Shown here one piece after another: positions 34,069 to 58,092 of a stretch of 64,000 bases of DNA. Origin of the DNA: Escherichia phage vB_EcoM_IME392; the sequence record MH719082.1; one strand, given 5' to 3'. The position numbers were made by a program, and so were the translations under genes. The notes below the pieces were generated by a model. That model was not told where the DNA came from. It saw only the letters and a program-made list of their open reading frames with translations, and ran no database searches. Numbering within the stretch: the first letter of the stretch is position 1; each line of letters starts with the position of its first letter.

Positions 34069-34077
34069 GGAATACCC

Positions 34078-34419: not shown

Positions 34420-34420
34420 T

Positions 34421-35767
34421 ATGGGTGGTTATATTGGTTTCAATCCATCTGATGGTGCTGGTGAACTTCGTAATGAATTGACTCCTAAGATCAAGAACAA
34501 CCAGGATAACATCATCGAGTTGTGGGCGAATGACTTAGCCGATTGTGGTTACAATCTGGCAGCTACTTTCGAGTTCGGTGGTATCTTATCTAACCGATTC
34601 GATCTGGTAGTATCTCTTGATCGTCAGCGTGCATATTCATGGAAGGGTAACTTTCCAGTAGATATTGCAAACGCACCTATCACCCATTCTAATTGGGTAC
34701 CTTGGTCGATCGACCAAATGGGTGCTGGTAACTTATTGGAAGTTAAGTGGGTATCCTCTCGTAAGTTATTAGGGTCACCATTATGGGGTGGATTCGTAGC
34801 AGCTGATGGTGGTATCTTCTCACGTATCTTGTATCCTGATACTTGGGCAGCAGTCAATGCTGGACTAGTACAAGTATGTCCTGAAGCTGACTGGGTAGCT
34901 GATCCTACTAAGCGCCACTGCTATACTACTGGTGATGGTACTACTACCTTCCGAGTACCTGACTTAAATGGTGCGTACCGTCATCCTAGTGACTCCTCTA
35001 AGAACTCCATTCCAGGATTATTCTTACGTGGTGATAATGGTAGTGACTACGGATACGTCCAGCGTAATGCTGCACCTAATATTACTGGTATTATACAAGG
35101 TCGTACTTCTGGTACTTATGGTCGACTATTCAGTCAATCTACTATTAATAGTGGAGCATTACAAACTAGTGATGAGAATGGTGGTGAATTCGCTACTGGT
35201 ACAGTAACTGCATCGACTCCATCTGATCGTATGAGTAAGTTACTATTTGATGCATCAAAATCACTTACACCAGGTGCTGAGGCTTACGGTCGTGCTGAAC
35301 CTAATGGTGCACCTGCTGATGAAGTCCGACCTAACAGTGCAGTAGGTTGTTACGCTATCCGTCTACAAGGTCGAGTTGTGAATCCCGGTACGGTGGATCT
35401 GTTATCATTAGTTGATACAGTTGCAGGTATGACTATAGGTAATACACCTAGCAGTAATCAGATTCCTAACATGAAGCATTGGACTCGTGGAGGGTCAGGT
35501 CGTGCATGGTGGAGGAAAGAACCTGATGGATTCATTAGACAGGGAGGATTCTTTACTGCTAATGTTAGACCTGGTTCAGGTACTAAAGTGTACGTTGATG
35601 TAACATGGGCTATACCATTCCCTAATGAATGTAACTCAGTAACCGTAGGTGATGCTGGATTCGGTGATGGTAATATGTGGGGCGCCACTAATATCACCAG
35701 GACTGGAGCTCGTTTATGGTGTAGCGCAGTAGGCGAGGGTGGTTACTACTTGGCTGAGGGCTACTAA
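34421..35767 (+). CDS. tail fibre protein
   Basis: start ATG 34421; shares TTFRVPDLNG...RGDNG...NGAPNITG block with 36207 gene. Confidence 0.55.
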   Translation: MGGYIGFNPSDGAGELRNELTPKIKNNQDNIIELWANDLADCGYNLAATFEFGGILSNRFDLVVSLDRQRAYSWKGNFPVDIANAPITHSNWVPWSIDQMGAGNLLEVKWVSSRKLLGSPLWGGFVAADGGIFSRILYPDTWAAVNAGLVQVCPEADWVADPTKRHCYTTGDGTTTFRVPDLNGAYRHPSDSSKNSIPGLFLRGDNGSDYGYVQRNAAPNITGIIQGRTSGTYGRLFSQSTINSGALQTSDENGGEFATGTVTASTPSDRMSKLLFDASKSLTPGAEAYGRAEPNGAPADEVRPNSAVGCYAIRLQGRVVNPGTVDLLSLVDTVAGMTIGNTPSSNQIPNMKHWTRGGSGRAWWRKEPDGFIRQGGFFTANVRPGSGTKVYVDVTWAIPFPNECNSVTVGDAGFGDGNMWGATNITRTGARLWCSAVGEGGYYLAEGY

Positions 35768-36195
35768 TGGCTAATTATCTATATAGCAATTCTCGTAAAT
35801 CGTTCTATCCAGTATCGTTAATAGAAAATTATCAAAATAGCATAAACGGATTACCTGAAGATTTAGTAGAAGTCAGTGATTCTGACTTTAATGAATTTTC
35901 TCAGAGTCGTACTAATGAGTGCTGTAATTTAACTGAATCAGGATTCGAGTGGATTCCTAAAGGTCCTGAACCAGTATCAGTCGAAGATGCTCATCGTATC
36001 AAGAGTATCTTGATAAATAGTGCTAATAAGACTATTAGTACCTGGCAGACTAAGTTGATGCTTAATAGACTATCTGACGAAGATAAAGTCAAACTGAATG
36101 CTTGGTTGGACTACATCGATGAGCTGGAAGCTATCAATCCTGACTCAGTAGAAGATACATCAGCTATCCCGTGGCCTACTGCTCCTGAAGCATAA
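35767..36195 (+). CDS. tail fibre assembly chaperone (Tfa-like)
   Basis: 142 aa; C-terminal LNAWLDYIDELEAINPD...IPWPTAP. Confidence 0.55.
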   Translation: MANYLYSNSRKSFYPVSLIENYQNSINGLPEDLVEVSDSDFNEFSQSRTNECCNLTESGFEWIPKGPEPVSVEDAHRIKSILINSANKTISTWQTKLMLNRLSDEDKVKLNAWLDYIDELEAINPDSVEDTSAIPWPTAPEA

Positions 36196-36206
36196 AGAGG
36201 TATAAA

Positions 36207-37658
36207 ATGTCAAATGGATATATTGGTACCTACCCTAAATTCGCTATTTATTCTCCTGAGAAATTGGCGAAAGGTACCACCACTAAGACTCTGCAGTATG
36301 CTCCAGGATCAGCTTATGCAATTCTGGTAGTAGTAGGCGGGGCGATTCAGGAACCTAACGTAGCCTATACTGTAGCAGGTAATGTCATTACTTTCACGGA
36401 GACGCTCCCGTACGATGGATGGGTTCAGTACCGTGGACTTGAAGGTAAGGATGCTACTGACTTTATCGCAGCTGCAGGTGATCCAGTACTATCAGCACGT
36501 TGGGCATTCTCACGTGATCATATCTGGGATGGATTCGTTCCACTAGATGGTCAGGAATTATCTCGTGCTATGTACCCGTCAGCATGGGAGGCTATCAATG
36601 CTGGATTAGTACCAGTCGAGGATGATGCTGCATGGTTGGCTGATCCCAAGAAACGTGCATCGTTTACTAAGGGTGATGGTACTTCAACATTCCGAGTACC
36701 TGACCTTAATGGTAAGTTGGGTGATTCTATAAAGGGACTGCACATCCGTGGAGATAATGGTGATTCAGCTCGTACCGGTAAAGTACTCCAGAATGGCGCT
36801 CCGAATATTACAGGATACACTAATTTATTAGGGTATAACACATGGGCAAATAATGCCGGAGCGGCCAACGGTGCATTAAACTTAAGCCAGGGTTTAGCAT
36901 TCTCCAACGGTACCGATTTAGTTGTAAACTCTTCTTACAGAGAATTAAGAGCTAATTTAGATGCATCTAAATCTAATGCATCTTATGGTCGTGACGGCAC
37001 TGATGAAGTGCGTCCTAATGCAGCTATTGGATGCTGGGTAGTCAAGTTATTCGCAGGTATCGCTAATGCTGGTGTAGCTGATCTGCAGCAAGTGCTAGTC
37101 ACGTTAGCTGGTAAGATGGATAAGACCAAGTACGAATTCGGTGTACCAATGATTGGCGTACCATTCTACTGGCCATCGGATAAGATGCCTGATGAAGTAT
37201 ATCCTGAGCTGAAAGGTATGCACTTCATCCAAGCTCGTGGTGATAACTTCGATGCTGAACTGTATCCTAAGTTAGCTACTGTTTATCCTAATAATAAGTT
37301 ACCAGATTTACGTGGTGAATTCATCCGTGGTTGGGATGACGGACGTGAAGTGGATACTGGACGAGCTCTGCTATCGCGTCAATCACATTCAATTATTGAA
37401 CACTCACACTATATGGAGTTGTGGACAGGTGACGTACTTCATTCTGGGGATGCTAGAGATGGGGTAAATGCAGGAGTACTGGCTACCTATGGTGATGGTG
37501 GGTCAATTAAATCTGACGAATCAGGTAATCATGTACCCTCCTTAGTACGAGCTATTAATACTCGTAATATTAATCGTTACAACGTAAATAGCGAAAATAT
37601 AAGCACAGAAAACCGTCCACGTAACGTAGCATATAACATCATTGTAAGGGCATTATAA
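36207..37658 (+). CDS. tail fibre protein with phage tail-collar domain
   Basis: VPFYWPSDKMPDEVY...LPDLRGEFIRGWDDGR. Confidence 0.6.
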   Translation: MSNGYIGTYPKFAIYSPEKLAKGTTTKTLQYAPGSAYAILVVVGGAIQEPNVAYTVAGNVITFTETLPYDGWVQYRGLEGKDATDFIAAAGDPVLSARWAFSRDHIWDGFVPLDGQELSRAMYPSAWEAINAGLVPVEDDAAWLADPKKRASFTKGDGTSTFRVPDLNGKLGDSIKGLHIRGDNGDSARTGKVLQNGAPNITGYTNLLGYNTWANNAGAANGALNLSQGLAFSNGTDLVVNSSYRELRANLDASKSNASYGRDGTDEVRPNAAIGCWVVKLFAGIANAGVADLQQVLVTLAGKMDKTKYEFGVPMIGVPFYWPSDKMPDEVYPELKGMHFIQARGDNFDAELYPKLATVYPNNKLPDLRGEFIRGWDDGREVDTGRALLSRQSHSIIEHSHYMELWTGDVLHSGDARDGVNAGVLATYGDGGSIKSDESGNHVPSLVRAINTRNINRYNVNSENISTENRPRNVAYNIIVRAL

Positions 37659-38266
37659 TGAGCATTGAATTTAACGATCAAGGTTTTGCCACCACTTCTG
37701 GTAAAGTGATGGTTTATAACTACAATGAAGATACTCGTGAATTCACATTTAATCGTGAAGAGTTTATCTACGTAGGTGTATCGGTACCAGCTCACTCCAC
37801 AATCGTTCCAGTGCCTGCAGAACGTGAAGGATATGCTCGAGTGTATCATGAAGATACCAAGAAGTGGGAATATGTAGAAGATCACCGTGGAGTAGAAGTT
37901 TACTCAAAAGCTGATCAAACTAAAGTAACTATCCAGGAACTCGGACCTATCGACGATATCTACACTACGATTGCTCCTACTTCAATCCATGATAATTGGG
38001 ATGAAGATACTGGTGCATGGGTACTAGATGAAGTTGCTGAGCACGAAGCTAAGGTGGTTGCGGCTGATGCCAAGAAAGTAACATTGATTGAGGATGCTAA
38101 TGCTTATATCAATAGTAAGCAGTGGCCATCCAAACTGGCAATGGGCCGACTGAGCGATGCTGATAAAGTCAAGTTCAATTTGTGGCTAGATTATCAGGAG
38201 GAAGTAGAAGCTATTGAAACTACTGATCCTGATACTATCGTATGGCCAGAAGCACCTGCTAAGTAA
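37658..38266 (+). CDS. tail fibre assembly chaperone (Tfa-like)
   Basis: C-terminal FNLWLDYQEEVEAIETTDPDTIVWPEAP, paralog of 35767 gene. Confidence 0.55.
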   Translation: MSIEFNDQGFATTSGKVMVYNYNEDTREFTFNREEFIYVGVSVPAHSTIVPVPAEREGYARVYHEDTKKWEYVEDHRGVEVYSKADQTKVTIQELGPIDDIYTTIAPTSIHDNWDEDTGAWVLDEVAEHEAKVVAADAKKVTLIEDANAYINSKQWPSKLAMGRLSDADKVKFNLWLDYQEEVEAIETTDPDTIVWPEAPAK

Positions 38267-38341
38267 TATTTATTAAGGGGTAGTTATGTCAATTAATTAC
38301 ATGACTCCAGATAGTATCGTGATTGTAAGTGAGGTGTCAAT

Positions 38342-38965
38342 ATGAGCCTCACCCGTCTTAAGTATTTAATGAACGAAGGTACAGATGCTGAAGTTGAAGC
38401 GTATCTACGCCAGCTGGGTATCGGTAATGGAGCTCCATTAATAGGAGTACCGTTCCCGTGGGTTCATCCTACCAAGATGCCTGATGAGATATTTACTTCA
38501 ATGAAGGGTATGCGATTTCTGAAGATGAATGGTCAGACATTCGATCCAGAAACATACCCAGAACTGGCTAAGCTATGGACAACTAATCAGTTACAAGATC
38601 TACGTGCACAATTTATCCGTGGATGGGATGACGGTCGAGGCATGGATGCAGGACGAACGATCAATACTGGTCAGTCAGATTCTGCCCCAGAAATATCTGG
38701 TTGGTTCAGGACTGTTAATACTGAGAATGCATCAATCTGGGAAAGCATAACATCAGGATTTGGTTCTGGAGCTCTCTACGGTACTAATACTAAAGGTCAG
38801 TATTATAGATTAGCGGGACTTCCAATGGATATTAACGCTACCTATAAGTATCCTACAGTAATTAACTTCTTGGCATCACGATCATCTTCAGTATATGGAC
38901 GAAACGGCACCAATGAAATTGTACCTAAAAACGTAGCATTTCTGTACATCGTTCGAGCTAAATAA
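38342..38965 (+). CDS. short tail-collar-domain fibre protein
   Basis: VPFPWVHPTKMPDEI...LQDLRAQFIRGWDDGRG. Confidence 0.55.
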   Translation: MSLTRLKYLMNEGTDAEVEAYLRQLGIGNGAPLIGVPFPWVHPTKMPDEIFTSMKGMRFLKMNGQTFDPETYPELAKLWTTNQLQDLRAQFIRGWDDGRGMDAGRTINTGQSDSAPEISGWFRTVNTENASIWESITSGFGSGALYGTNTKGQYYRLAGLPMDINATYKYPTVINFLASRSSSVYGRNGTNEIVPKNVAFLYIVRAK

Positions 38966-39044
38966 ATAAATAGCTACAATAGCAGGTGCAACTTGTACAT
39001 GGGTTATGATAAACGAAGTGTTGACAATATCATAGGGTGATTAA

Positions 39045-42032
39045 ATGTCTTATAATCCAATTGTAGAAGGGTCAACTTGGCCCGAGACTATTCGCCGCTT
39101 AGAAAAGACGGATAGGGCAGAAGGCGGTCAACTAGTTACTAATTCTAAGGATGAACCAGTATCCGGACATATTAATCATCCAATAACCCAATTAGCTACT
39201 AGAACCTCCATTTTAAAAAAGTCTAATTTATCGATAATTAATAATACTAAAGAACAGTGGAAGTTATTACTCGGTGACTTAGGACTAACTCTTGTTGGCA
39301 CTTTTGAAGAAGGTGCTACAGTAAACAGTAAAAAGGATGCTGTCTGGCATATTGATGGTGGCCAGTGCTACGTGTGGGGTGGCGTGCTCCCTAAGACTGT
39401 ATATGCTAACTCCTCACCGCTAACTACTGGTGGTGTCTCTTCTGATGCTTGGGTTAGTATTGGTGATACCGCACTGCGAGGGCAAATATCAGACCCGGAT
39501 GGTGCAACAAAATACCCCGAATTGCAGATTGCTCGATGGCGTGACATTTTCGACCCTCGTGGTTGGGGAGCTAAAGGTGATGGATTAGTCGATGATACTG
39601 TGGCTCTTAATAATCTGTTAAGCGCTGCTCCAGTAGGTCAGAAAATTAATGGTAACGGCAGAACCTATAAAGTATCCGCACTTCCAGATATTAGCAGATT
39701 CGTTAACACTCGTTTCGTTTATGAGCGTATTCCTGGCCAGCCGCTTTATTATGTATCTGACGAGTTTGTTCAGGGTGAGTTAATTAAAATAACCGATACC
39801 CCTTATTACAATGCTTGGCCTCAGGATAAAGCGTTCGTTTACGACGATGTTATTTACTGTCCGTTCATGGCTAGCGATCGGCACGGGGTTAGCAGGCTTC
39901 ATGTATCCTGGGTTCGCTCAGGTGATGACGGACAGACCTGGACGACCCCGGAGTGGCTAACTGACCTACACCCTAATTACCCAACAGTTAACTACCACTG
40001 TATGAGTATGGGGGTGATGCGTAATCGTCTCTTTGCGATGATTGAGACCCGTACTTTAGCAGCTAACGCATTAGTGACCTGTGAGTTGTGGGATCGCCCC
40101 ATGTCCCGTAACTACCATCTGACAGGTGGTATAACAAAAGCTGCCAACCAGCCTGTGGCTGTAATTACCATCCCTGAACACGGTCTTTTTGCTGGGGATT
40201 TTGTTAACTTCTCGAACTCTGGGGTGACTGGCGTTTCTGGGAATATGACTGTAACTTCAGTTATTGACCGCAACACGTTTACAGTTACCACGCCAAATCA
40301 ACAAGCATTCGACCAAAATAACTCTACCAGCCGCTGGCATATGGGGACATCGTTCCATCAGTCACCATGGCGTAAAACCAGCCTTGGATTGATCCCTATG
40401 GTTACCGAGGTTCACAGTTTTACCGCCATCAATAACGATTCATTCATGATGGGGTACCATCAGGGTGATGTTGCTCCGCGTGAAGTAGGTATGTTGTATT
40501 TCCCTGATGCATTTAACAATCCTGGGCATTATATAAAACGACGTATCCCTGCTGAATATGAGCCGGATGCGGCAGAACCCTGTGTTAAATATTTTGACGG
40601 TGTTCTTTATGTTGTAACCCGTGGAACTCGGTCGGACCGTCTGGGTAGTTCGCTTCATCGTAGTAATGATTTGGGTATAACCTGGCAATCATTGAGGTTC
40701 CCGAATAATGTCCACCACTCCACCCTGCCATTCGCTAAGGTAGGAAACGAACTGATTCTTTTCGGCACTGAACGCGCCGACAACGAGTGGGAAGCAAACG
40801 CACCCGACCAGCGATATTTTAGTTCTTACCCACGAACGTTTTACACGCGAGTGAACCTCGACACCTGGAACCTGGATAATACTCAGTGGGTGAATATCAC
40901 TGACCAGATTTATCAGGGTGGTATTGTTAACTCTGGCGTCGGTGTCGGATCGGTCGTCGTGAAAGATAGTTATATCTATTACATGTTCGGTGGGGAAGAC
41001 CATCTGAACCCATGGACATATGGAGATAACTTAGAGAAAGACCCATTCAAATCAGACGGTCATCCCTCAGATTTGTATTGTTACAAAATGCAGATCGGTC
41101 CAGACAATCGTGTTTCTCGTGATTTCAGGTACGGTGCTGTACCTGACAGAGCGGTTCCAGTGTTTTTTGATACGAATGGAGTTCGCACTGTTCCTGCTCC
41201 AATGGAATTTACAGGGGATTTGGGTTTAGGTCATGTGACCATTAGAGCCAGCACCAGTAGTAACATTCGCTCTGAAGTTTTAATGGAAGGTGAGTATGGG
41301 TTTATCGGGAAATCTGTACCGACTAATAACCCTGCAGGTCAGCGCATCATATTTTGCGGAGGCGACGGTACCAGTTCTTCTACTGGTGCACAGATTACGC
41401 TTTACGGTGCGAGTAACACAGCTTCTCGCAGGATAGTTTACAACGGAGATGAGCATCTGTTTCGGAGTGCTGATGTTAAGCCTTATAACGATAACGTCAT
41501 TGCGCTTGGTGGGCCTAGCAACCGTTTCACCACTGCATACCTCGGAAGCAACCCTATTGTTACTTCTAACGGAGAGAAGAAAACAGAGCCGGTAGTTTTT
41601 GATGATGCTTTTTTAGATGCTTGGGGCGATGTTCATTACATCATGTATCAGTGGTTGGATTCTGTACACCTGAAAGGAAATGACGCTAGAATCCATTTTG
41701 GCGTAATTGCTCAGCAGATCCGCGATGTATTCATTGCTCACGGTCTGATGGATGAGAACAGCACGGATTGCCGCTATGCTGTTCTGTGTTACGACAAATA
41801 TCCTCGCATGACAGACATGGTGTTCTCTCACTATGAAATAGTTGAACACACTGACGAGGAGGGTAATGTCACTACCACGGAAGAACCTGTATACACCGAG
41901 GTGGTTATTCACGAAGAGGGTGAGGAGTGGGGTGTGAGGCCTGATGGAATTTTCTTTGCTGAGGCAGCATTCCAGAGAAGAAGACTGGAAAGAATCGAAG
42001 CCAGACTTTCCGATCTTGAAAAGAAGCAGTAA
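39045..42032 (+). CDS. tailspike: sialidase-like beta-propeller with C-terminal S74 intramolecular chaperone domain
   Basis: 995 aa; Asp-boxes SGDDGQTW and SNDLGITW; C-terminal ARIHFGVIAQQIRDV...FAEAAFQRRRLERIEARLSDLE; N-terminal anchor motif. Confidence 0.65.
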   Translation: MSYNPIVEGSTWPETIRRLEKTDRAEGGQLVTNSKDEPVSGHINHPITQLATRTSILKKSNLSIINNTKEQWKLLLGDLGLTLVGTFEEGATVNSKKDAVWHIDGGQCYVWGGVLPKTVYANSSPLTTGGVSSDAWVSIGDTALRGQISDPDGATKYPELQIARWRDIFDPRGWGAKGDGLVDDTVALNNLLSAAPVGQKINGNGRTYKVSALPDISRFVNTRFVYERIPGQPLYYVSDEFVQGELIKITDTPYYNAWPQDKAFVYDDVIYCPFMASDRHGVSRLHVSWVRSGDDGQTWTTPEWLTDLHPNYPTVNYHCMSMGVMRNRLFAMIETRTLAANALVTCELWDRPMSRNYHLTGGITKAANQPVAVITIPEHGLFAGDFVNFSNSGVTGVSGNMTVTSVIDRNTFTVTTPNQQAFDQNNSTSRWHMGTSFHQSPWRKTSLGLIPMVTEVHSFTAINNDSFMMGYHQGDVAPREVGMLYFPDAFNNPGHYIKRRIPAEYEPDAAEPCVKYFDGVLYVVTRGTRSDRLGSSLHRSNDLGITWQSLRFPNNVHHSTLPFAKVGNELILFGTERADNEWEANAPDQRYFSSYPRTFYTRVNLDTWNLDNTQWVNITDQIYQGGIVNSGVGVGSVVVKDSYIYYMFGGEDHLNPWTYGDNLEKDPFKSDGHPSDLYCYKMQIGPDNRVSRDFRYGAVPDRAVPVFFDTNGVRTVPAPMEFTGDLGLGHVTIRASTSSNIRSEVLMEGEYGFIGKSVPTNNPAGQRIIFCGGDGTSSSTGAQITLYGASNTASRRIVYNGDEHLFRSADVKPYNDNVIALGGPSNRFTTAYLGSNPIVTSNGEKKTEPVVFDDAFLDAWGDVHYIMYQWLDSVHLKGNDARIHFGVIAQQIRDVFIAHGLMDENSTDCRYAVLCYDKYPRMTDMVFSHYEIVEHTDEEGNVTTTEEPVYTEVVIHEEGEEWGVRPDGIFFAEAAFQRRRLERIEARLSDLEKKQ

Positions 42033-42155
42033 ATAAAGACTTTTACCGTAGGTAGGAGAAGGTAGAGGCTTCAATTTAAGATTTAACTTAAACTAATCAC
42101 CACTCTAAAGTTACTAAGTGTTTGTACATCATGTAATATTTTATGGAGATCACCA

Positions 42156-44777
42156 ATGGGCGGTCGTTCTAAGTTATTTAGCGAACTGGGCGGAGCTCCT
42201 CTTAATACTTATCAGCATGATAACCAGACTCTCGATATTCGCGAGTTAGAAAATCAGCAGAAAGTATTAGACGAGACTCTTGCCGAAACAATAGGCAACG
42301 TTAACGAGTTGCAACAGACTGCTGGTCAGTCTATGTATATCCTCGGTAACTATGCCTCCGGAATGGTGATCGAGAACGACCGCCAGTACGTCAGATATGA
42401 TAATCTGCTGTACTATTGGACTGGTCCTGTACCGTTCACTACCACCGGCAACTTCTACGAAGAATCCTACTGGACTGGTGGGGTACAGAGCGGTATCGAG
42501 TGGAGTTACGAGGTACAGGAAGATGGGGAATTCGAGTTTAATATTCCTTACTCCTTTACCAACGTACGTCTATTCGTAGGTGGTGTCCGCCTTACTCGCG
42601 TAGAAGATTACACTATCGATGTGATTAATCGCAAGATCACTCTGACTAAGGTTAAGCTGTCGAAGGGTGTCCTGGTGACTGCCGAGCTGAACTCTCGTGA
42701 TGCTCTTAGCGTTACCCAGGATCGCATCGATAGCCTTACCAGAGAGATCTCAGAGAAAGTAGGTTTCGTTAATTACAAACTTACTGATCTGTCTGAAGGT
42801 CAGAGCCTGACTCTCACTACCAGAGTCCAGACTGTAAGCTTCTCAGTAAATGGGGAGTATTATAAATGGGATGGCGTTCTTCCTAAAGTTGTTAATTATG
42901 GAGATCCGGAGCCATCTCAATCTGAACAGGGGACTGGTAAGTGGATTCCTGTAGGTTCTGGTGCTCTTAAGTCAGAGCTCATGACTGCTGGCGAAACTAC
43001 TGGTGCTGCTATTGTCTATCTGAGATATGGTGGCACGGTGGCTGATGGTATTCGATACATCACCCCAGAAATGGCTCGAGCTAAAGGCGACGGTACTACG
43101 GACGATACAGCAGCTCTTCGCTCTGCTGTTACCCTGGCTAAGACTTATGGTCTTAAGCTTATGGGTATGGGTACTTACAAGATCTCTAACCAATCGGTGG
43201 ATATTTCCGGGGTAGTGATCGAGAACCTAACCATAGTTGGTACCGGTGCTAGTTCACAGCTGCTGGTTAATGGCGATACGGACATAACTAAGCTGAACCT
43301 TAGCAAATGCGGTATTCGTCACATCAACGGTATCTTTAAACTCGACCAGTTCGAAATTAATGACTGTTCTGCGACTGCTGCTCTGCTGTGTCAGCAATTA
43401 GCAGCTAATAGCCAACTGTTCGTCACTAATGGTATTATGCGTCGCTGTAACTATGGTTACCTCCGTCAGGGTAGTCCTGCATCTTCCAAGCCGCTCACTG
43501 CGACTCTGCTACAGAACTTACAGTTCTTCGACATGAAGAGCGACCCTATTGAGATTAACTTGGCAGTAGCAGATACCAATACCCGAATCGACAACATCAC
43601 TGTTGATAATGTCGACGCGACCAGCACTGGTAACGCTAACTGGGGTATTGCAATCGGTCTGGCTGGTACTGGTAACTACTCTCTGACTGCTCCGGACTCC
43701 GAGTATATGTCAGACGTGGTGATCAGTAATGTTAAGGTTAAGGGTGCTAAGCAGTGTATCCATATGGAGAAATGCCGAAACATCACTATACGAGACATCG
43801 AGATTTACCCAGATGTTAATAAGTCTACTGGCGTAGGTCTGGATACTGGCGGCCTTATTGCCTACGGATGCAAAGATATCGATGTGGATGGTGTGATCGG
43901 CTCCCCAGTTAACGGTACTGAGGAGATGATTCGATTCTTGTGGGGTACTGTAAACAGTGCTTACACCTTCGCTCATCGTAACATCCGTATTCGTAACGTA
44001 AATATCACTGGTACTGTTCATGTTGAGGTATGTACTACCGATACTCTGAACTCTACTGTCGAGATGAAGAATATCAAAGCTACCACTATATCTCTTCAGG
44101 GTATGGCATCCGAGTATCGTCTCTCGGACTGGTCAGCTGAGAAAATCATTCTCGACTTCCGCTACACGTCTGGTGATGCTCGAGATAACTACCGCCGTAA
44201 CAAGTGGATGGTTGCCAACATCTCCAACATGAAATGCCTTGATCCTAATACTGGTGCGGCTAACGTTACTGTCCAGAACATCACGGTGGATACTCTGGAA
44301 GTCTCGGATTGTAACTTCTCTATCCCGAAGACTACCACTGCTACTCACTACCGTGGTACTCCAGCATGGCGTCAGAACGGCGTGATTTATCATACCAAGA
44401 CTGGTACTCCTTACGGCATGGCTCTTCTTGCTGGTGACACTATTGTTGCCAGCGATGGAACTATGTTCACGGTGACCGCTCCTGGAGCTCTGTTCTATAC
44501 CAACGAAACTGTTGCGGCTGCCACTGCTGGGTCTAATTCTATCCGTTCTAAGGCTAACCTTAACTGGACTGGTCAGTATTATAAGACCGCTGGATGTAAG
44601 GTTAAAATAGCAGGAGGTGGTGGTGCTGATGGTGCTGATTATATCGGTACTATCATCCGTAGTGGTTATGTTAATGGCGGTAATTATTACTTTGATGTGT
44701 ACCCAGCACTTCAGTCTAACGTTCCTGATGGCGCAGTATTAACTTCTGTAGATACGCCAGCCTTTAAGACAGTTTAA
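42156..44777 (+). CDS. tailspike with right-handed beta-helix (depolymerase-like) domain
   Basis: 873 aa; two anchor motif copies; central repetitive N/G/T/V-rich region typical of parallel beta-helix. Confidence 0.6.
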   Translation: MGGRSKLFSELGGAPLNTYQHDNQTLDIRELENQQKVLDETLAETIGNVNELQQTAGQSMYILGNYASGMVIENDRQYVRYDNLLYYWTGPVPFTTTGNFYEESYWTGGVQSGIEWSYEVQEDGEFEFNIPYSFTNVRLFVGGVRLTRVEDYTIDVINRKITLTKVKLSKGVLVTAELNSRDALSVTQDRIDSLTREISEKVGFVNYKLTDLSEGQSLTLTTRVQTVSFSVNGEYYKWDGVLPKVVNYGDPEPSQSEQGTGKWIPVGSGALKSELMTAGETTGAAIVYLRYGGTVADGIRYITPEMARAKGDGTTDDTAALRSAVTLAKTYGLKLMGMGTYKISNQSVDISGVVIENLTIVGTGASSQLLVNGDTDITKLNLSKCGIRHINGIFKLDQFEINDCSATAALLCQQLAANSQLFVTNGIMRRCNYGYLRQGSPASSKPLTATLLQNLQFFDMKSDPIEINLAVADTNTRIDNITVDNVDATSTGNANWGIAIGLAGTGNYSLTAPDSEYMSDVVISNVKVKGAKQCIHMEKCRNITIRDIEIYPDVNKSTGVGLDTGGLIAYGCKDIDVDGVIGSPVNGTEEMIRFLWGTVNSAYTFAHRNIRIRNVNITGTVHVEVCTTDTLNSTVEMKNIKATTISLQGMASEYRLSDWSAEKIILDFRYTSGDARDNYRRNKWMVANISNMKCLDPNTGAANVTVQNITVDTLEVSDCNFSIPKTTTATHYRGTPAWRQNGVIYHTKTGTPYGMALLAGDTIVASDGTMFTVTAPGALFYTNETVAAATAGSNSIRSKANLNWTGQYYKTAGCKVKIAGGGGADGADYIGTIIRSGYVNGGNYYFDVYPALQSNVPDGAVLTSVDTPAFKTV

Positions 44778-44801
44778 TAGATTAAACTGAGGAGATTCTT
44801 G

Positions 44802-46253
44802 ATGTCCACCCAATTGCCAGATAGTCTGCAGTTAAGCAGCCTTAAGTACAAAGGTGACTATGCGGCTGGTATCTATCTAAACGGTAACCACTGCATTCTC
44901 AGATTTGTGCGTACTGATGGTAAGAAGGTGTTGGTTAAGTGGGTGGGGGACATCCCCCACACCACCGACGGTGAAACTCCGTATGCCGATGCCGAACAAA
45001 CTACTCTTAAAGCTGGATACGAGATCTTCGCCCAGACGAATGCAGTAGACTTCATTATTTCAATGCTTGGATCTTCTACCTCCTGGCGCTACATTGGCCA
45101 GGTAAACTCTGTGGAAGATCTGAAAACTATCACTCCTAAAGATGGCGATAGAGTGATGGTTAAAGGGTACTTCGGAGAGGGTACTCCTGGTGGTGGCGAG
45201 TTCAGAGTTAAAACGGAAAGCGACTCCATAGCCTCTGATAGTAAGGATGTGGTAAACGGTTGGGTAAGGGTTCGTCGTAGTAGAGAGTTCAGAGCTACCG
45301 AATTTGGTGCTGTTCCTGATAAATTCACTGACTCTACTGGTCAGGTTCAGGATATGCTTACCACTATCACCACTGGTCTGGCTATTATCGACCCAGGTGT
45401 AAAATACACTCTGGCCAGCTTAACTATTAAGCCTGGCGTCCAGATTCTGGATATGTCTGGATGGGATGGTAATTCATGGACGGCTGCAGTGAGATTCATC
45501 AGTAACTCTACTGATGGTTTAATTATCTCGTCTGCATCCAACGCTAACCTTAACCTTAACAGTAATAACGGGTTAGCCAGAGCTAAGGTATCTTACAGCG
45601 TAAGCGGAACTAAGATCTGGGAATCGGGTATGAGCGATGACTCTAACCGTGACTGGCATGTTCTTCGCGGAGCTGAATCTCGTTATCGTGTGGTAGCCTC
45701 TTCCCAGACTCACGCATGGAACCGAGATACCATAGTTGAAGGTGTCGATTACCACTTCGGTAAGAGAGCATCAGAGGATCATATTCTTCGATACGATGCA
45801 GTGAATACTGGCTATGATATCATTCATACCTACTATCACGGACCTACTCTTACTTCTAAGGTAACCCATAAAGGCGATGGATCAGTAGTCCTGACCCAGA
45901 ATGGTAAGGATACCATCAAGATAGTAGATGGTGTAATGACTGGTGCTCTTAAGAAGATCATCACGTCTACAGCTAATGTAACTCTTACCGCAGCTGATAC
46001 CGGTGCTATCTGCACTACCGATGGTGCCACTTCTGCTGTTACCGTTACCCTGCCAGTCGCTGTTCCTGGTATGACCTATGATGTTCTTGTAGGTGCCAAC
46101 TACAGCGTATCAGTAAAAACTGGTGGTACAGATCTCTTCCGTAATGGGAAAGCCACTATTTCCAACTCGGATAAGGGATCCTGGTTACGCTTAGTTTGTG
46201 CTATCTCTGGTTACTGGGAGATGGATACTGTTCAGGGTACCTGGGCAAGTTAA
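44802..46253 (+). CDS. tailspike/tail fibre protein
   Basis: ATG 44802 after GAGGAG; 483 aa in RBP gene series. Confidence 0.5.
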   Translation: MSTQLPDSLQLSSLKYKGDYAAGIYLNGNHCILRFVRTDGKKVLVKWVGDIPHTTDGETPYADAEQTTLKAGYEIFAQTNAVDFIISMLGSSTSWRYIGQVNSVEDLKTITPKDGDRVMVKGYFGEGTPGGGEFRVKTESDSIASDSKDVVNGWVRVRRSREFRATEFGAVPDKFTDSTGQVQDMLTTITTGLAIIDPGVKYTLASLTIKPGVQILDMSGWDGNSWTAAVRFISNSTDGLIISSASNANLNLNSNNGLARAKVSYSVSGTKIWESGMSDDSNRDWHVLRGAESRYRVVASSQTHAWNRDTIVEGVDYHFGKRASEDHILRYDAVNTGYDIIHTYYHGPTLTSKVTHKGDGSVVLTQNGKDTIKIVDGVMTGALKKIITSTANVTLTAADTGAICTTDGATSAVTVTLPVAVPGMTYDVLVGANYSVSVKTGGTDLFRNGKATISNSDKGSWLRLVCAISGYWEMDTVQGTWAS

Positions 46254-53700: not shown

Positions 53701-54324
53701 TTAGAAACGATCGCGACCTACGATTGGCGCGACTGGTTTAAAGTCAGTCTGGTCGTAACCTTTGTAAAGGTCGTAGCCACCACCAGCTATCTCAGTAAAG
53801 TAGATTTGCCCGATTCTCATATTAGAACGTAGGCGTATAGTATTAGGGCTTAAATTCACGATCTCCAAAGTGAACGCTCCTTTAAAGCCGTAGTCTCCAT
53901 AGCCTGCGCTAACGTGTGATAGGATACCTAAACGTGCCATAGTACTGCGACCGTCGTAATGCTGACAGAATGCTACACCACGGTCTACCGCGCTGTTACG
54001 GTAACGTGGGTCGTAATGCGCGAACCACTTCTCAGGCAACATAGCAGTACAGTCGATACGTTCTGATGCAGAACCTAATATGAACTCCCTAGGTTTAAGG
54101 TCGTAGTATAGCGCCTCTACTTCACGATACTCCGGAAGAGTACATGGTTTATAGGGATCTACTACATGGCCATCAGGCATCTTTTGAGGAACCAGGAAGA
54201 ACGGAGCTAAGCGTACATCTACACTATTCTGTCCGATTCGTGGTTCCTGATTGTCCAGATAACTGTGATAGGTCCATAATCCCTGAGTAATTGCCTGCTC
54301 AATATAAGATTTACCAAGGATCAT
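53701..54324 (-). CDS. dCTP deaminase-like protein (dUTPase superfamily)
   Basis: 207 aa; SVDVRL and DGRSTMARLGI match Dcd blocks. Confidence 0.65.
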   Translation of the reverse strand: MILGKSYIEQAITQGLWTYHSYLDNQEPRIGQNSVDVRLAPFFLVPQKMPDGHVVDPYKPCTLPEYREVEALYYDLKPREFILGSASERIDCTAMLPEKWFAHYDPRYRNSAVDRGVAFCQHYDGRSTMARLGILSHVSAGYGDYGFKGAFTLEIVNLSPNTIRLRSNMRIGQIYFTEIAGGGYDLYKGYDQTDFKPVAPIVGRDRF

Positions 54325-54509
54325 TACGGATGCTCCAGCATGTTCTTAACAGATTCTTCATCTGTAGCTTCTACGGCAGCATTATGATTCTTGAATGCTC
54401 CCCAGATATCATCAGATACGATCATAGTCTTAGGAGCTAAGTGCTCCGAACGAATAACCGTAATCTGGTTACGGTTAAGGTCCTTAGTTAGTTGCTCAAT
54501 ATCCATCAT
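54324..54509 (-). CDS. small hypothetical protein
   Basis: start at internal ATG 54509 after GAGGAA. Confidence 0.4.
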   Translation of the reverse strand: MMDIEQLTKDLNRNQITVIRSEHLAPKTMIVSDDIWGAFKNHNAAVEATDEESVKNMLEHP

Positions 54510-54527
54510 ATTCCTCGGTTCTATGGT

Positions 54528-54560
54528 AGAATAACATTGACCTCTCCTCAAAGAGGTCAA
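54528..54560 (-). terminator. hairpin terminator candidate downstream of dUTPase
   Basis: 9-bp stem TTGACCTCT/AGAGGTCAA, 6-nt loop, weak T-tract. Confidence 0.35.
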
Positions 54561-54591
54561 TAGTAATTACCGTAGTCTAACTACCCTGGGA

Positions 54592-55062
54592 TTACTTAAT
54601 CCCGGAATGCCCAAACCCACCGTCGCCACGTTCAGAAACATCAGAGAATTTATCCACGAGCTGAAACTCTGGCTGGATAACGGGAAGGAACACCATTTGT
54701 GCGATGCGGTCGCCGTGGTTAATAACGAAAGATTCGTTACTACGGTTCCACACAGACACCATCAGTTCGCCCTGATAGCCGGAGTCGATAAGACCAACCA
54801 GGTTACCCAGTACGATGCCATTTTTATGGCCGAGGCCGCTGCGGGGAAGAATCACAGAAGCGATGTTCGGATCTCCGATGTTGATCGCCAGACCGGTAGG
54901 GACCAGGATAGTTTCACCAGGATTTACAGCGATTTTATCGATTTCATCAGTCTTAATCATCGCACGAAGATCAAGACCAGCATCACCAGCTTTAGCGTAT
55001 TTCGGTAACTCCAGAGAGTCGTCCCAGTTAATAGTTTTCTTTACTTGAACTACAGTCATCAT
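54592..55062 (-). CDS. dut: dUTP diphosphatase (dUTPase)
   Basis: 156 aa; near-identical blocks to bacterial Dut: [57 protein letters not shown]. Confidence 0.9.
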
Positions 55063-55439
55063 GATGCCCTTTTGTACTGTTTAATGAATGCTGCGCAGAT
55101 GCTGGTGAAGAGGTGATCTTTGACTCGATGCTCTTCCGGCAACCGTGAATATGGAACCATACACGGGTGCGTCTTAGCTGCGAGATCTTTGATTTCTCCA
55201 TACTTCCAGCCCTGCTCCTTTTTAGTTTTAACCCAGAATTCATGGGACTCTTCTGGGCTTACACGGTTATTGTGCAAGCAGTTATACGCTCCATCAATAG
55301 CCGACTGTTTTATTTCATCGGATGTTGCTTCCCAGCTTAATTGGGTGAAGTCTCCGATAGAGTGACAGTATGCACGATTAGCTTCGTGACATACCTTAGC
55401 CACCATCAATACGATTTCTTCTCGGGTCATATGAGACAT
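55059..55439 (-). CDS. hypothetical protein
   Basis: 126-aa ORF overlapping dut start. Confidence 0.5.
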
Positions 55440-55680: not shown

Positions 55681-55715
55681 CGGTTTAACAGCCTTTGGAG
55701 GCTACGAAAGAGCGG
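55681..55715 (-). promoter_or_regulatory. conserved leftward promoter-like motif, copy 9
   Basis: CGGTTTAACAGCCTTTGGAGGCTACGAAAGAGCGG. Confidence 0.45.
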
Positions 55716-56025
55716 AATCTTCGTCAGGTAATGAATTAACGAAGTCAGCTATAACTTGAGCATGACATGGTAAAGGCAAGCAGGAGCACCCTAAAGTCTT
55801 ACCCTTAAGAGTCCGTAAGTAAGAGATGCTTATGTGGCCATCTTTTACTTGCTGATGGAACCATAGTTTATATTTCGCGATGGCTAATGTTCGGGAACCT
55901 ACGTTAATAGCGTTAGGTAAATCTTTATGGCTCCACTTATTCCCGAATATAGTACCTCTCCCAACATATAGATCATAATTAGGATTGGTACGTATATTAA
56001 CCACCCTACAAAGTTTACTCTCCAT
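55702..56025 (-). CDS. DUF4326-like protein
   Basis: 107 aa; VVNIR...YDLYVGRG...GNKWSH...LKGKTLGCSCLPLPCHA pattern. Confidence 0.45.
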   Translation of the reverse strand: MESKLCRVVNIRTNPNYDLYVGRGTIFGNKWSHKDLPNAINVGSRTLAIAKYKLWFHQQVKDGHISISYLRTLKGKTLGCSCLPLPCHAQVIADFVNSLPDEDSALS

Positions 56026-56728
56026 CTTCTACAGAATTACCCTGCAGAGCAATCATGGTATTCACCTCATGCTCCAGATCTTGTAGATCTTTTACTCGGT
56101 TAATAGTTCGAACCCAGGTCTTAGCTTCCAGCATCGCATCGAACAGTGCATGGTGATCAGACATAGACTCATGCTGGCTACGCAGTTCTTCTTTAATCAT
56201 GCGACGATCATCGAATGAGATCAGCTGCAGACTAGCCAGAGTACGGTAATCACGATTCATCCAGTGCAGGAACGGAGACTTACGACCTTTAGCCTTAAAG
56301 TACCAGTCCAGGAATCCTTGGTCGAACTCTGGTGCGTTACCGATGAAGTTCAACATCTGGCAACCAGGATCCTGTAGTACCTTAGCTACGTACTCTTCGA
56401 TGATATCCAGAGCTTCGTCAACAGATACCGGATTAGCATATGCAGCATCACGGACGGGTTTCGGGAGAGTGTTGAGCCACTCTACTACATTAGGGTCCGA
56501 CTTCATACCCAACGCCAGTGACTCTTCGCGATCGATAGTGAAGTAGACATGGGAGTAATGCTCTGGACCTATAGTTACCATGCCTACCGACAGAACTACA
56601 CCAGGCTCTTTGAAATCGAGATACTCAGTCTCGATGTCGATTGCGCAGTGATAGGAGTCGTGATATGACAGGAATCGGTTAAACAGTTTATTCGGAGCCA
56701 GATGGTGTGGCATCATCTTAGTAGACAT
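56015..56728 (-). CDS. DEDDh-type 3'-5' exonuclease
   Basis: 237 aa; Exo I AIDIETEY, Exo III HHALFDAMLEA; AAGGA RBS. Confidence 0.6.
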   Translation of the reverse strand: MSTKMMPHHLAPNKLFNRFLSYHDSYHCAIDIETEYLDFKEPGVVLSVGMVTIGPEHYSHVYFTIDREESLALGMKSDPNVVEWLNTLPKPVRDAAYANPVSVDEALDIIEEYVAKVLQDPGCQMLNFIGNAPEFDQGFLDWYFKAKGRKSPFLHWMNRDYRTLASLQLISFDDRRMIKEELRSQHESMSDHHALFDAMLEAKTWVRTINRVKDLQDLEHEVNTMIALQGNSVEDGE

Positions 56729-56755
56729 CGGTTATCCTTATCAGTTGAGGTGCGA

Positions 56756-56790
56756 CACTTTAACAGCCTTTCGAGGGTAAGAAACGGCGG
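56756..56790 (-). promoter_or_regulatory. conserved leftward promoter-like motif, copy 10
   Basis: CACTTTAACAGCCTTTCGAGGGTAAGAAACGGCGG; 27 bp upstream of start at 56728. Confidence 0.45.
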
Positions 56791-56792
56791 AA

Positions 56793-57146
56793 TTAATCTT
56801 TATTCACAGTATACCCTAGACTGGTTAATAATGTATCTACTTCAACGGCATCATATACTGGAGATGCCTTACCTACTGTGATATGATCTGTGTAATGAAT
56901 TTTAGGAGTAGTTACTTTACGCTCTCTACCCGAGAGGAATTTTACTGCATCCTCAACATTACTATTATGATCACCAGTCCAGCCATCATCAATAGCCATC
57001 TGAATAATACGGTGATGAATAGCTCGGTTTTCGGCATTCTCTACTCTAGCCTTACTCAGATTAGCCTTAGTAGTGTCTAATTCCTGTCGTACTGAGTTAT
57101 ATCGCTCTTCCCAGCGTCCGTCATGAATTTCAGTATCTTCAGCCAT
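56793..57146 (-). CDS. hypothetical protein
   Basis: 117-aa ORF with RBS. Confidence 0.5.
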   Translation of the reverse strand: MAEDTEIHDGRWEERYNSVRQELDTTKANLSKARVENAENRAIHHRIIQMAIDDGWTGDHNSNVEDAVKFLSGRERKVTTPKIHYTDHITVGKASPVYDAVEVDTLLTSLGYTVNKD

Positions 57147-57378
57147 TACGTGCCTTCTTAAGATGCCATTGTGCTACCCACCAGAATGTAGTTCCTGGTG
57201 CAGAGTAGTTATTGAATAACCCACCATTACTAAGCAGACTCTTAGCTGCTCGACGATGACCACGACGCTTCTTGCGAGGATCGAGTTTAACTGCTTGAGC
57301 TACTTGCTCATAGGTATCATAACCCACGATCTGCATGCTCCCAACCGCATTAGTTACTGCTTGGATAGGTTGTTCCAT
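57139..57378 (-). CDS. hypothetical protein
   Basis: start at internal ATG 57378 after GGGAG. Confidence 0.45.
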   Translation of the reverse strand: MEQPIQAVTNAVGSMQIVGYDTYEQVAQAVKLDPRKKRRGHRRAAKSLLSNGGLFNNYSAPGTTFWWVAQWHLKKARNG

Positions 57379-57394
57379 AATTACTCCCAACGTT

Positions 57395-57424
57395 AAATAA
57401 AAATAGCGCTCCCTAAAGAGCGCT
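57395..57424 (-). terminator. rho-independent terminator (leftward)
   Basis: stem AGCGCTC/GAGCGCT, loop CCTAAA, followed on - strand by ATTTTTATTT. Confidence 0.5.
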
Positions 57425-57432
57425 AAGATAGG

Positions 57433-57606
57433 TTAGTCTTCTTCGCCCCACTCATCATCGTAGGCCTGCTTAGGAGTCTTACCTTCATCGTAATCATCCC
57501 GCCAGGCTTCCGCATCAGCAGCGCTACCGCCACGAGACTGAGCGTATTGGTGCAGCAGTTTATGCCACTCCGCAAACGATCCTGTCTCCTTAGTCATTTG
57601 TTCCAT
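57433..57606 (-). CDS. small acidic protein (absent from ORF track)
   Basis: ATG 57606 after GGGAGGAG; 57 aa MEQMTKETGSFAEWHKLL...DDEWGEED. Confidence 0.4.
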   Translation of the reverse strand: MEQMTKETGSFAEWHKLLHQYAQSRGGSAADAEAWRDDYDEGKTPKQAYDDEWGEED

Positions 57607-57624
57607 AACTAACTCCTCCCGAAG

Positions 57625-58092
57625 TTACATTAATAATCGTCCGAGCATGTTAATACCAGTAAGGACGGACTTGTACTCCTCACGGGTCATACCCCAGAAA
57701 GAGTCTCCGTGGGTATTTCCTTCGACCAGCTCCTTAGGCCAAGTATCGGTCAATTTTTGAGCTAGCTCCCCACCTTTCGCGAATTTAATCCGGAGTAGGT
57801 GTTCCATTACGTCTACTCGCTGTTCCTTCCACGATTCAGTAATGGGTAGCTTACGTCCATATCTCTTGGCCTCACCAGGAGTATGAAGTCTAGCTATGAT
57901 AAGACGATGGGCTAGCGATGGAGACTTAGATGCTTGATAGGCATGCTCCACACTAGGGTAAGTAAGGGAGGGAAGAGTCTCGTTCCCGTAAGGATTCTTA
58001 TCCTCAATATGAACAGGATAAAAGTTAGATAGGAATCGGTACTCTCCGCTAAACTCCAGAATAGAGTTCTTGTCGGTCCAGATCCGCATCAT
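57625..58092 (-). CDS. NADAR-domain (YbiA-like) protein
   Basis: 155 aa; FLSNFYP, SVEHAYQASK, VMEHLLRIKF, LVEGNTHGDSFWGM. Confidence 0.7.
   Translation of the reverse strand: MMRIWTDKNSILEFSGEYRFLSNFYPVHIEDKNPYGNETLPSLTYPSVEHAYQASKSPSLAHRLIIARLHTPGEAKRYGRKLPITESWKEQRVDVMEHLLRIKFAKGGELAQKLTDTWPKELVEGNTHGDSFWGMTREEYKSVLTGINMLGRLLM

Follow-up and report, generated by a model that had tools for sequence, protein, structure and literature searches.

Neighbouring dCTP deaminase-like and dUTPase genes of Escherichia phage vB_EcoM_IME392: a probable supply of dUMP for modified thymidine

Gene sets predicted to direct 5-hmdU formation and thymidine hypermodification have been described for the phages EP_H11, IME392, YerA41, Carin-5 and RP13 (PMC12686479; 10.1101/2025.03.26.645540; PMC9023294). 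The thymidine of YerA41 carries a substituent of ~1 kDa, and T-modification has been predicted for Escherichia phage EP_H11 (bioRxiv 10.1101/2025.03.26.645540), whose proteins WBU87719.1 and WBU87640.1 are listed as a dCTP deaminase and a thymidylate synthase (TS), respectively (PMC12686479, Table 1). Outside the phages, mycobacteria possess both a bifunctional Dcd:dut and a separate Dut, with roles divided between the two (PMC5519681).

Escherichia phage vB_EcoM_IME392 is ~93% identical to EP_H11 at the nucleotide level. The window analysed here, a stretch of 64,000 nucleotides from its sequence record (MH719082.1), corresponds to EP_H11 positions 47119–106333. A sequence-only reading of the window had pointed to a Dcd-like gene paired with a dUTPase gene (dut) that would together channel dCTP to dUMP for dTTP synthesis. 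Both open reading frames are present on the minus strand, in the following arrangement.

53701–54324, minus strand: Dcd-like gene (207 residues), identified by PF22769, PHROG 1663, PDB and fold matches
54324–54509, minus strand: small open reading frame, 61 residues from ATG 54509, with a GAGGAA RBS
54535–54562, minus strand: inverted repeat, 12-bp stem and 4-nt loop, just 3′ of the dut stop
54592–55062, minus strand: dut, trimeric dUTPase (156 residues), identified by HMM, motif and E. coli Dut matches
55059–55439, minus strand: gene for a RyR-domain protein (126 residues; PF02026, 5.8e-13), directly upstream of dut

Gene order and the dUTPase

The Dcd-like gene and dut are neighbours, as had been proposed, but not strictly adjacent: between them lie the small open reading frame and the inverted repeat. 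The stop of the small reading frame overlaps the Dcd-like start (TAATG). Its 61-residue start agrees with the EP_H11 ortholog WBU87718, annotated at 186 bp, and a program-made list of open reading frames extends it to TTG 54560, within the hairpin. The match of this product to PHROG 23599 is weak (1.7e-5), and an indel relative to EP_H11 makes a codon-based comparison invalid. The hairpin, with a poor T-run after the stem, may be a weak terminator, an attenuator or an RNA-stability element; terminator-like sites are not above chance in a terminator scan (5 found, against 3.5 ± 1.8 in shuffled sequence).

Overlapping the dut start is the stop of the RyR-domain gene (ATGA), the product of which may work together with Dut. 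In the metagenomic relative L008, RyR and dUTPase domains are joined in one open reading frame of 294 residues. Such a fusion appears to be rare, as it was not seen in the best 120 of 599 RyR homologues, all of which are stand-alone or have other partners. An extra EP_H11 gene downstream of Dcd, WBU87720, gave no match in a Pfam scan. The Dcd-like/Dut region probably belongs to a co-oriented, tightly packed early or middle gene block of a lytic phage of the E. coli type.

Judged by its sequence, Dut is a canonical trimeric dUTPase, and its assignment proved as unambiguous as first thought. E. coli Dut (PDB 1dud) matches it at E = 1e-54, with 66% identity across 133 aligned residues, and the long identical blocks noted before include runs of up to 13 residues. 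Cut-offs are passed for PF00692 (120.5 bits, cut-off 22), NF001862 (184.9 bits, NCBIfam cut-off 103) and TIGR00576 (147.1 bits, cut-off 102.55). All five dUTPase motifs (I, AGLDL at residue 28; II, PRSG at 73; III at 90; IV, RIAQ at 119; V at 145) align with those of E. coli Dut; the catalytic Asp in motif III is present, as is the P-loop-like motif V. Of near-equal length (156 and 152 residues), the two proteins differ by a four-residue insertion after motif I of the phage Dut, which is moreover phage-encoded and translationally coupled to the upstream RyR-domain gene. Codon differences from the EP_H11 ortholog number 15 synonymous and 1 non-synonymous.

Adjacency of dcd and dut is kept in EP_H11 and, roughly, in L008. 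In YerA41, the Dcd of which belongs to the same clade as the phage protein (39% identity), the two genes are far apart; the annotation around the Ab1-TPeters Dcd shows no Dut within 8 kb, and adjacency is absent in N4-like and ThyX-carrying contigs. The idea of Dcd and Dut as an obligate module was rejected on this lack of conservation among relatives.

Fold and catalytic residues of the Dcd-like protein

The 207-residue protein belongs to the Dcd/DCD-DUT branch of the dUTPase superfamily. It carries the Dcd signature recognized in the sequence-only reading (VDVRL, residues 35–39; DGRSTMARLGI, residues 124–134), scores 80.5 bits with Pfam PF22769 (dCTP deaminase-like; gathering score 27), and matches PHROG 1663 ‘dCTP deaminase’ at 6.7e-25 and PDB chains of DCD-DUT and Dcd at 1.6e-10 to 3.4e-7. 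The family matches of both Dut and the Dcd-like protein are far beyond chance. With TIGR02274, the NCBIfam equivalog model for dCTP deaminase, the score of 82.1 bits lies under the cut-off of 92.8, and the protein is thus not a certified equivalog; on the same model E. coli Dcd scores 224.2, and P0005, a homologue of shorter length, narrowly exceeds the cut-off at 93.3. A word-indexed search found 39 homologues of the protein among 5.8 billion clusters. It is 94.7% identical to the EP_H11 ortholog WBU87719.1, from which its gene differs by 69 synonymous and 11 non-synonymous codon changes (dN/dS = 0.035), and the gene is under strong purifying selection.

The AlphaFold (AF2) model of the protein (pLDDT 93.1, pTM 0.87) adopts a dUTPase-like β-barrel with the N-terminal extension of Dcd. 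The best Foldseek match is M. tuberculosis DCD-DUT (E = 4e-11, TMt 0.72–0.84), and B. halodurans DCD-DUT and E. coli Dcd are the other best fold matches. Making up the top 38 PDB matches are deposited Dcd/DCD-DUT chains plus five archaeal chains titled dUTPase, from Thermococcus, P45 and Sulfolobus; bacterial, eukaryotic and phage Dut chains match far more weakly (E ~ 1e-4).

Both the catalytic Ser and the catalytic Glu are retained. Residues S127, R131 and E154 align with S111, R115 and E138 of E. coli Dcd (S118, R122 and E145 in M. jannaschii), and H137, A140 and D144 align with E. coli H121, A124 and D128; all six phage residues are invariant in 40/40 homologues. Together with Q173, A140 and D144 are the equivalents of dUTPase motifs III and IV. 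These features suggest a dCTP-deaminase-family enzyme that is apparently active, and the retention of S127, R131 and E154 makes channelling of dCTP to dUMP the best reading of the pair, in keeping with the two-enzyme logic of Dcd and Dut in the enterobacterial host. Conserved as these positions are between the phage protein and monofunctional E. coli Dcd (PDB 1xs1; TIGR02274), the proteins differ in other respects: identity is ~24–30% (24% in the fold alignment, 29–30% in sequence alignments), the phage protein has an insertion of ~25 residues (residues ~92–118), Gln173 stands in place of Ala157, and Gly-Tyr in place of His125-Arg126.

A reading in which the 207-residue protein is no deaminase but another nucleotide hydrolase of the dUTPase fold (acting on dCTP or dTTP, or as a second dUTPase) or a regulator without catalytic activity is very unlikely. 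It would fit the TIGR02274 score and the GenBank name ‘trimeric dUTP diphosphatase’ borne by the YerA41 and haloviral homologues, and hypermodifying phages classically need a dTTPase or dTMPase. Against it, the deaminase-specific Glu154 is invariant across the family together with Ser127 and Arg131, and the phage’s own Dut has Ser at the Glu154 position (alignment by eye); moreover, the protein lacks dUTPase motif V, Dcd and DCD-DUT chains match its fold ~6 orders of magnitude better than dUTPases do, and an HD nucleotidase of EP_H11 is already a candidate for the exclusion role.

Whether deamination and pyrophosphate release are combined in this enzyme bears on the role of its neighbour. Owing to the retained motif-IV Gln, lost in E. 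coli Dcd, the protein may form dUMP directly. Residue Q173 occurs in 40/40 homologues, as it does in the proven bifunctional enzymes of M. tuberculosis (Q148) and M. jannaschii, both of which have IGQ at this position. In the M. tuberculosis DCD-DUT, S102, D119 and Q148, which are equivalent to S127, D144 and Q173 of the phage protein, reportedly hold the hydrolytic water according to work by Helt in 2008, and such residues are said, there and in work by Johansson in 2005, to decide between mono- and bifunctionality. A residue-level rule for this choice was not found in PMC4827122, PMC10733785 or PMC5519681.

That the protein is a bifunctional, dUMP-forming DCD-DUT (EC 3.5.4.30), with Dut only clearing other dUTP as in mycobacteria, is a tentative proposal that we consider somewhat doubtful; it is a mechanistic variant of the scheme set out below. 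The phage protein shares with M. tuberculosis DCD-DUT the fold, the Ser/Arg/Glu deaminase residues and the positions Ala140 (A115), Asp144 (D119) and Gln173 (Q148), and the segment A140-G141-Y142 is more like A115-G116-F117 of M. tuberculosis than A124-H125-R126 of E. coli. Bifunctional enzymes are the top matches in sequence as well as in fold, there is no Dut within 10 kb of the Dcd relatives in L005, L006 and L009, and mycobacteria, like this phage, have a separate Dut in the same genome (PMC5519681). On the other hand, the argument from the deciding residues remains an inference, E. coli Dcd trails the bifunctional enzymes only narrowly in the sequence and fold searches, and a dedicated Dut 270 bp upstream suits a dUTP-releasing enzyme equally well. 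The known DCD-DUT enzymes are only 26–27% identical to the phage protein, which is set apart by the insertion of ~25 residues before GRST, by GDYG for IDPG and by a different C-terminal tail. A more elaborate proposal, quite unlikely as a whole, would make the 207-residue clade a phage-specific dUMP-forming DCD-DUT, free of dTTP feedback or controlled by 5-hmdUTP, acting in a complex with Dut and the RyR protein as a dUMP module for hypermodified thymidine. Under that proposal the insertion and the altered allosteric loop (GDYG for IDPG) would change feedback.

The destination of dUMP

As first read, the window holds no thymidylate synthase: the EP_H11 TS homologue gives a best tblastn E value of 0.98, and the ThyX motif RHR(x7)S was not found in any of the six frames. 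In EP_H11, a cluster at 9.6–16 kb, outside the window-equivalent region, encodes a PIG-L deacetylase, an HMUDK_hel protein, a P-loop kinase, the TS homologue and a YfbR-like HD nucleotidase. Apart from the TS homologue, these proteins and two neighbour proteins have no match in the window at E ≤ 0.01 (tblastn). The window thus holds the dUMP-supply step only, unlike the full gene sets of the EP_H11 group, which include hydroxymethylase and modification genes. That IME392 has the hydroxymethylase cluster we infer only from EP_H11, at 93% identity.

Lying beside the P-loop kinase, WBU87638 matches PF18723, HMUDK_hel (5-hmdU-DNA-kinase helical domain), at 4.4e-35. The sole TS-family gene of EP_H11, WBU87640, has as its best solved relative the CMP 5-hydroxymethylase MilA (3e-15), with true TS at 4.5e-6 or weaker. 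Its catalytic Cys is conserved, and an Asn aligns with a MilA Asp that we take to be the cytosine-specifying residue, as known for the T4 enzyme. The nearest phage relatives of WBU87640 are in ViI-like, SP-10 and SPO1-like phages, which contain 5-hmdU-derived bases. By these comparisons, the EP_H11 TS-family gene looks like a pyrimidine hydroxymethylase.

The most likely reading of the pair, with a probability of roughly 0.7, is that Dcd and Dut give a flux from dCTP to dUMP, the dUMP most likely serving a TS-family hydroxymethylase in a pathway of 5-hmdU hypermodification. The 207-residue protein would deaminate dCTP through the Ser127/Arg131/Glu154 triad, yielding dUTP or, as Asp144 and Gln173 are kept, dUMP and PPi directly. 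The neighbouring Dut would convert dUTP to dUMP and PPi, completing the route and keeping dUTP from the replication pool, for a net flux under phage control. The consumer of this dUMP would most likely be a dUMP hydroxymethylase of the TS family, with its gene in another part of the genome, and not a true thymidylate synthase; 5-hmdUMP would pass through 5-hmdUTP into DNA as 5-hmdU and be hypermodified after replication. The scheme starts from gene identities, fold, conserved residues, purifying selection and EP_H11 gene content, all observed; in it the enzyme activities, mono- or bifunctionality and the modified DNA itself are predictions. The choice of 5-hmdU hypermodification over plain dTTP derives from the EP_H11 gene set outside the window-equivalent region. 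Of the pathway first proposed for the pair, the channelling therefore stands, and dTTP as its destination is probably wrong, the EP_H11 TS gene being hydroxymethylase-like.

An unlikely alternative is that the pair boosts canonical dTTP and sanitises dUTP, with more dUMP passing to host ThyA or a true phage TS in a burst of replication and the phage DNA containing ordinary thymidine. The same Dcd clade adjoins ThyX and a dNMP kinase in L009 and NrdD in L005 and L006, a dNTP-synthesis context, and is found in N4-like contigs; those with ThyX and the dNMP kinase or of the N4-like type are ordinary dTTP contexts, and the clade, also present in phages with ThyX, is consequently not specific to hypermodifying phages. 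Furthermore, no difficulty was reported in sequencing EP_H11, for which modification is a prediction only. Set against this, its only TS-family gene is nearer to MilA than to any TS and nearer to the homologues of hmU-type phages, and adjoins the HMUDK_hel protein and the HD 5′-deoxynucleotidase, features characteristic of pathways to 5-hmdU and of the exclusion of dTMP. The evident sequenceability of EP_H11 was counted against the hydroxymethylase reading, as were the TIGR02274 score, the ~25-residue insertion, the location of the hydroxymethylase, kinase and HMUDK-like genes outside the window, the presence of the Dcd clade in ThyX phages and the unconserved Dcd–Dut adjacency. The sequence-only reading had also raised depletion of the dCTP and dUTP pools, for which no supporting evidence was found in this analysis. 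Use of the pair as a weapon, with dCTP depletion arresting host replication or countering a host nucleotide-depletion defence, is highly improbable: its appeal is conceptual, in that Dcd consumes dCTP, but the phage itself needs dCTP for DNA of ~45% G+C, dcd and dut lie among genes of nucleotide and DNA metabolism, and relatives tie the Dcd clade to ThyX, kinases and RNR.

Place in phage thymidine modification

Taken alone, the Dcd and Dut pair is textbook nucleotide metabolism, and the finding is real but ordinary; it will not surprise specialists, as the EP_H11 ortholog is already listed as a dCTP deaminase in publications from 2025. It places the phage in the small EP_H11/YerA41/Carin-5 group, for which heavily modified thymidine has been predicted or shown. 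Phages of this kind withstand restriction enzymes and pose problems for sequencing, and new DNA chemistry can be drawn from their enzymes. Dcd and Dut together would be the entry point of the modified-thymidine pathway, and the mode of action (mono- or bifunctional) and regulation of the Dcd clade would explain how the pyrimidine pool is redirected in these phages.

Organization of the dut and Dcd-like genes

In this phage DNA (window G+C ~45%), both genes paired by an earlier sequence-only reading match the ORF list exactly in position; they lie on the minus strand.

53701-54324, minus strand, Dcd-like ORF, 207 aa
54535-54562, minus strand, inverted repeat (hairpin) with a perfect 12-bp stem, between the dut stop and a small ORF
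54592-55062, minus strand, dut ORF, 156 aa
55059-55439, minus strand, RyR-domain gene (PF02026), directly upstream of dut
55702-58092, minus strand, DUF4326 protein, Rv2179c-like 3'-5' exonuclease and NADAR-domain protein, located upstream within this gene block

The 156-aa protein is, by its sequence, a canonical trimeric dUTPase, as that reading held. It matches Pfam PF00692 (120.5 bits), NCBIfam NF001862 (184.9 bits, cut-off 103) and PHROG 135 (9e-59), is 66% identical to E. coli Dut over 133 aligned positions, the longest identical stretch being 13 residues (1dud, E=1e-54), and carries all five dUTPase motifs, including the motif III catalytic Asp and the P-loop-like motif V. From its ortholog in Escherichia phage EP_H11 it differs by 15 synonymous and 1 non-synonymous codons.

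Between dut and the Dcd-like gene are one small ORF and the hairpin. In the mechanical ORF list the small ORF begins at TTG 54560, inside the inverted repeat; sequence inspection offers an alternative, ATG 54509 preceded by a GAGGAA RBS, and because of this start and the annotated length of the EP_H11 ortholog (186 bp), the small gene is most likely 61 aa long. The hairpin, with a poor T-run behind its stem, may be an attenuator or RNA-stability element. The small-ORF stop overlaps the start of the Dcd-like gene (TAATG) and the RyR-gene stop overlaps the dut start (ATGA); the region from the RyR gene to the Dcd-like gene is a tightly packed block, probably co-translated. RyR and dUTPase domains are joined in a single 294-aa ORF in a metagenomic relative (L008:6556-7440), which, with the gene overlap, hints at a functional link. 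Such fusion is rare, as none involves Dut in the best 120 of 599 RyR homologues.

Family and predicted activity of the Dcd-like protein

The 207-aa protein passes Pfam PF22769 'dCTP deaminase-like' (80.5 bits, gathering score 27) but falls short of the equivalog cut-off in NCBIfam TIGR02274 (82.1 versus 92.8 bits), which marks it as a dCTP deaminase family member and not a certified equivalog; it also matches PHROG 1663 (6.7e-25). Its closest solved relatives by sequence are the bifunctional dCTP deaminase-dUTPases (DCD-DUT) of M. tuberculosis (1.6e-10) and M. jannaschii (3.4e-9), followed by B. halodurans DCD-DUT (9.6e-8) and E. coli Dcd (3.4e-7). With a confident AlphaFold2 model built from 41 sequences (pLDDT 93.1, pTM 0.87), Foldseek places Dcd and DCD-DUT structures at the top (E from 4e-11, TMt ≤0.84), with Dut chains of bacteria, eukaryotes and phages weaker by some six orders of magnitude. 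Loss of the Dcd catalytic residues, which the earlier reading had named as grounds for refuting it, is not seen: S127/R131/E154 align with S111/R115/E138 of E. coli Dcd (MG1655 sequence) and S118/R122/E145 of M. jannaschii, and are invariant, together with H137, A140 and D144, in 40 of 40 family members. The earlier Dcd-like assignment was essentially right. The triad's invariance and the lack of motif V make a hydrolase without deaminase function an unlikely alternative. Compared with EP_H11, omega is 0.035 despite 14% nucleotide divergence, with 69 codons changed synonymously and 11 non-synonymously, which indicates strong purifying selection on the gene.

Present in every member of the clade is Q173, in an 'RIGQ' segment whose counterparts are dUTPase motif IV (RIAQ in the window's Dut), Q148 of M. 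tuberculosis DCD-DUT and IGQ in M. jannaschii; in E. coli Dcd the position is Ala157. Likewise, A140-G141-Y142 resembles A115-G116-F117 of the M. tuberculosis enzyme and is unlike A124-H125-R126 of E. coli Dcd. In the M. tuberculosis enzyme the hydrolytic water is reportedly held by S102, D119 and Q148 (work of Helt et al. in 2008). Taken together, these residues suggest that the needs of both half-reactions are kept and that either dUTP or dUMP could be released; in both cases the net route with Dut would be dCTP to dUMP. In mycobacteria a bifunctional Dcd:dut coexists with Dut, the former serving dCTP:dTTP balance and the latter dUTP clearance (PMC5519681).

EP_H11 and the fate of dUMP

Megablast found one close relative only, EP_H11 (OP688485.1, 111 kb, ~93% identity), to which the window maps in reverse orientation at 47119-106333. 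Without a match there at E≤1e-20 is window 31636-46236, a ~14.6-kb block with large plus-strand ORFs (up to 995 aa) between collinear, 90-95% identical flanks; opposite it is a shorter EP_H11 stretch (~9 kb, 65.5-74.6 kb) with annotated tail-fibre genes, a pattern that probably reflects exchange of a host-range cassette. In EP_H11 the 207-aa protein has a 94.7%-identical ortholog, WBU87719.1, labelled 'hypothetical protein' in GenBank. Immediately downstream of Dcd, EP_H11 carries an additional gene of 651 bp, WBU87720 (57401-58051; L001:20621-21271), which has no match in a Pfam scan and no counterpart in the window phage (indel at window ~53700/53717); nucleotide identity is 85.7% for the Dcd gene beside this indel versus 96.6% for dut.

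As the sequence-only reading had it, a search of the window found no thymidylate synthase (TS). Outside the window-equivalent region of EP_H11, at 9.6-16 kb, is a cluster whose genes encode a PIG-L-type deacetylase, a PF18723 '5-hmdU DNA kinase, helical domain' protein (4.4e-35), a P-loop kinase (AAA_28, and 'thymidylate kinase' in PHROG), a TS-family protein and a YfbR-like HD 5'-deoxynucleotidase. The HMUDK_hel-only protein adjoins the separate P-loop kinase (L002, 12422-14205), an arrangement that resembles a split 5-hmdU DNA kinase. Also within this putative modification cluster is a full-length BCCT betaine/carnitine/choline transporter (L002, 8174-9556; PF02028, 1.6e-91), unusual in a phage. 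In the window, a 263-aa ORF (3889-4680, minus strand) with a sub-threshold match to the PF04488 DXD glycosyltransferase sugar-binding region (E=5.5e-4) may be a DNA/base glycosyltransferase relevant to hypermodification.

The TS-family protein of EP_H11 has a weak match to Pfam TS (44 bits), and among its solved relatives MilA, a CMP 5-hydroxymethylase, ranks first (3e-15), with genuine thymidylate synthases at 4.5e-6 or weaker. The catalytic Cys is kept, and an Asn aligns with a MilA Asp that, by the T4 enzyme, we take to specify cytosine; this replacement points to uracil as the substrate. Among phage proteins, the EP_H11 protein is closest to the 'thymidylate synthases' found in ViI-like phages, SP-10 and SPO1-like phages, which make their DNA from 5-hmdU. 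For ViI, and for M6, this is documented (PMC8989533). In two papers of 2025 EP_H11 is among phages with YerA41/SP-15-type DNA polymerases predicted to be T-hypermodified (PMC12686479; bioRxiv 10.1101/2025.03.26.645540), and WBU87719.1 and WBU87640.1 are given as dCTP deaminase and TS, respectively (PMC12686479); the gene pair and its role are thus already noted for this orthologous phage. The YerA41 Dcd belongs to the same clade (39% identity), and a ~1 kDa substituent is present on YerA41 thymidine (PMC9023294).

By analogy with this 93%-identical relative, itself a predicted case, dUMP would most likely pass to 5-hmdUMP and hypermodified thymidine, not to dTMP, given the cluster, the MilA-like protein and the predicted hypermodification. 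Of the proposal that the pair channels dCTP to dUMP for dTTP, the first step stands as a prediction; the destination is probably 5-hmdU-derived bases, judged by EP_H11 gene content, and canonical dTTP supply is less likely. Pool depletion, also raised earlier, has no support here as a weapon.

The Dcd clade in other phages

A word-indexed search of 5.8 billion protein clusters returned only 39 homologues, all in phage-like contexts. In N4-like contigs the Dcd adjoins NrdD; in L005 and L006, contigs of this kind, a NADAR protein occurs with it as well. In a 72-kb contig it follows ThyX and a dNMP kinase, and a 17-kb contig is syntenic with the window (exonuclease, RyR-dUTPase, three small ORFs, Dcd, lysis and tail genes). 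Dcd lies near Dut in the closest relatives only, this proximity being absent in YerA41 (g114 versus g141) and at the Ab1-TPeters Dcd. The N4-like, ThyX and window-like contexts point to a phage dUMP-supply enzyme with varied downstream enzymes, not confined to hypermodifying phages. What remains novel is the biochemistry of this phage Dcd clade, including possible bifunctionality, its ~25-aa insertion relative to E. coli Dcd and its regulation, and the RyR-Dut linkage.
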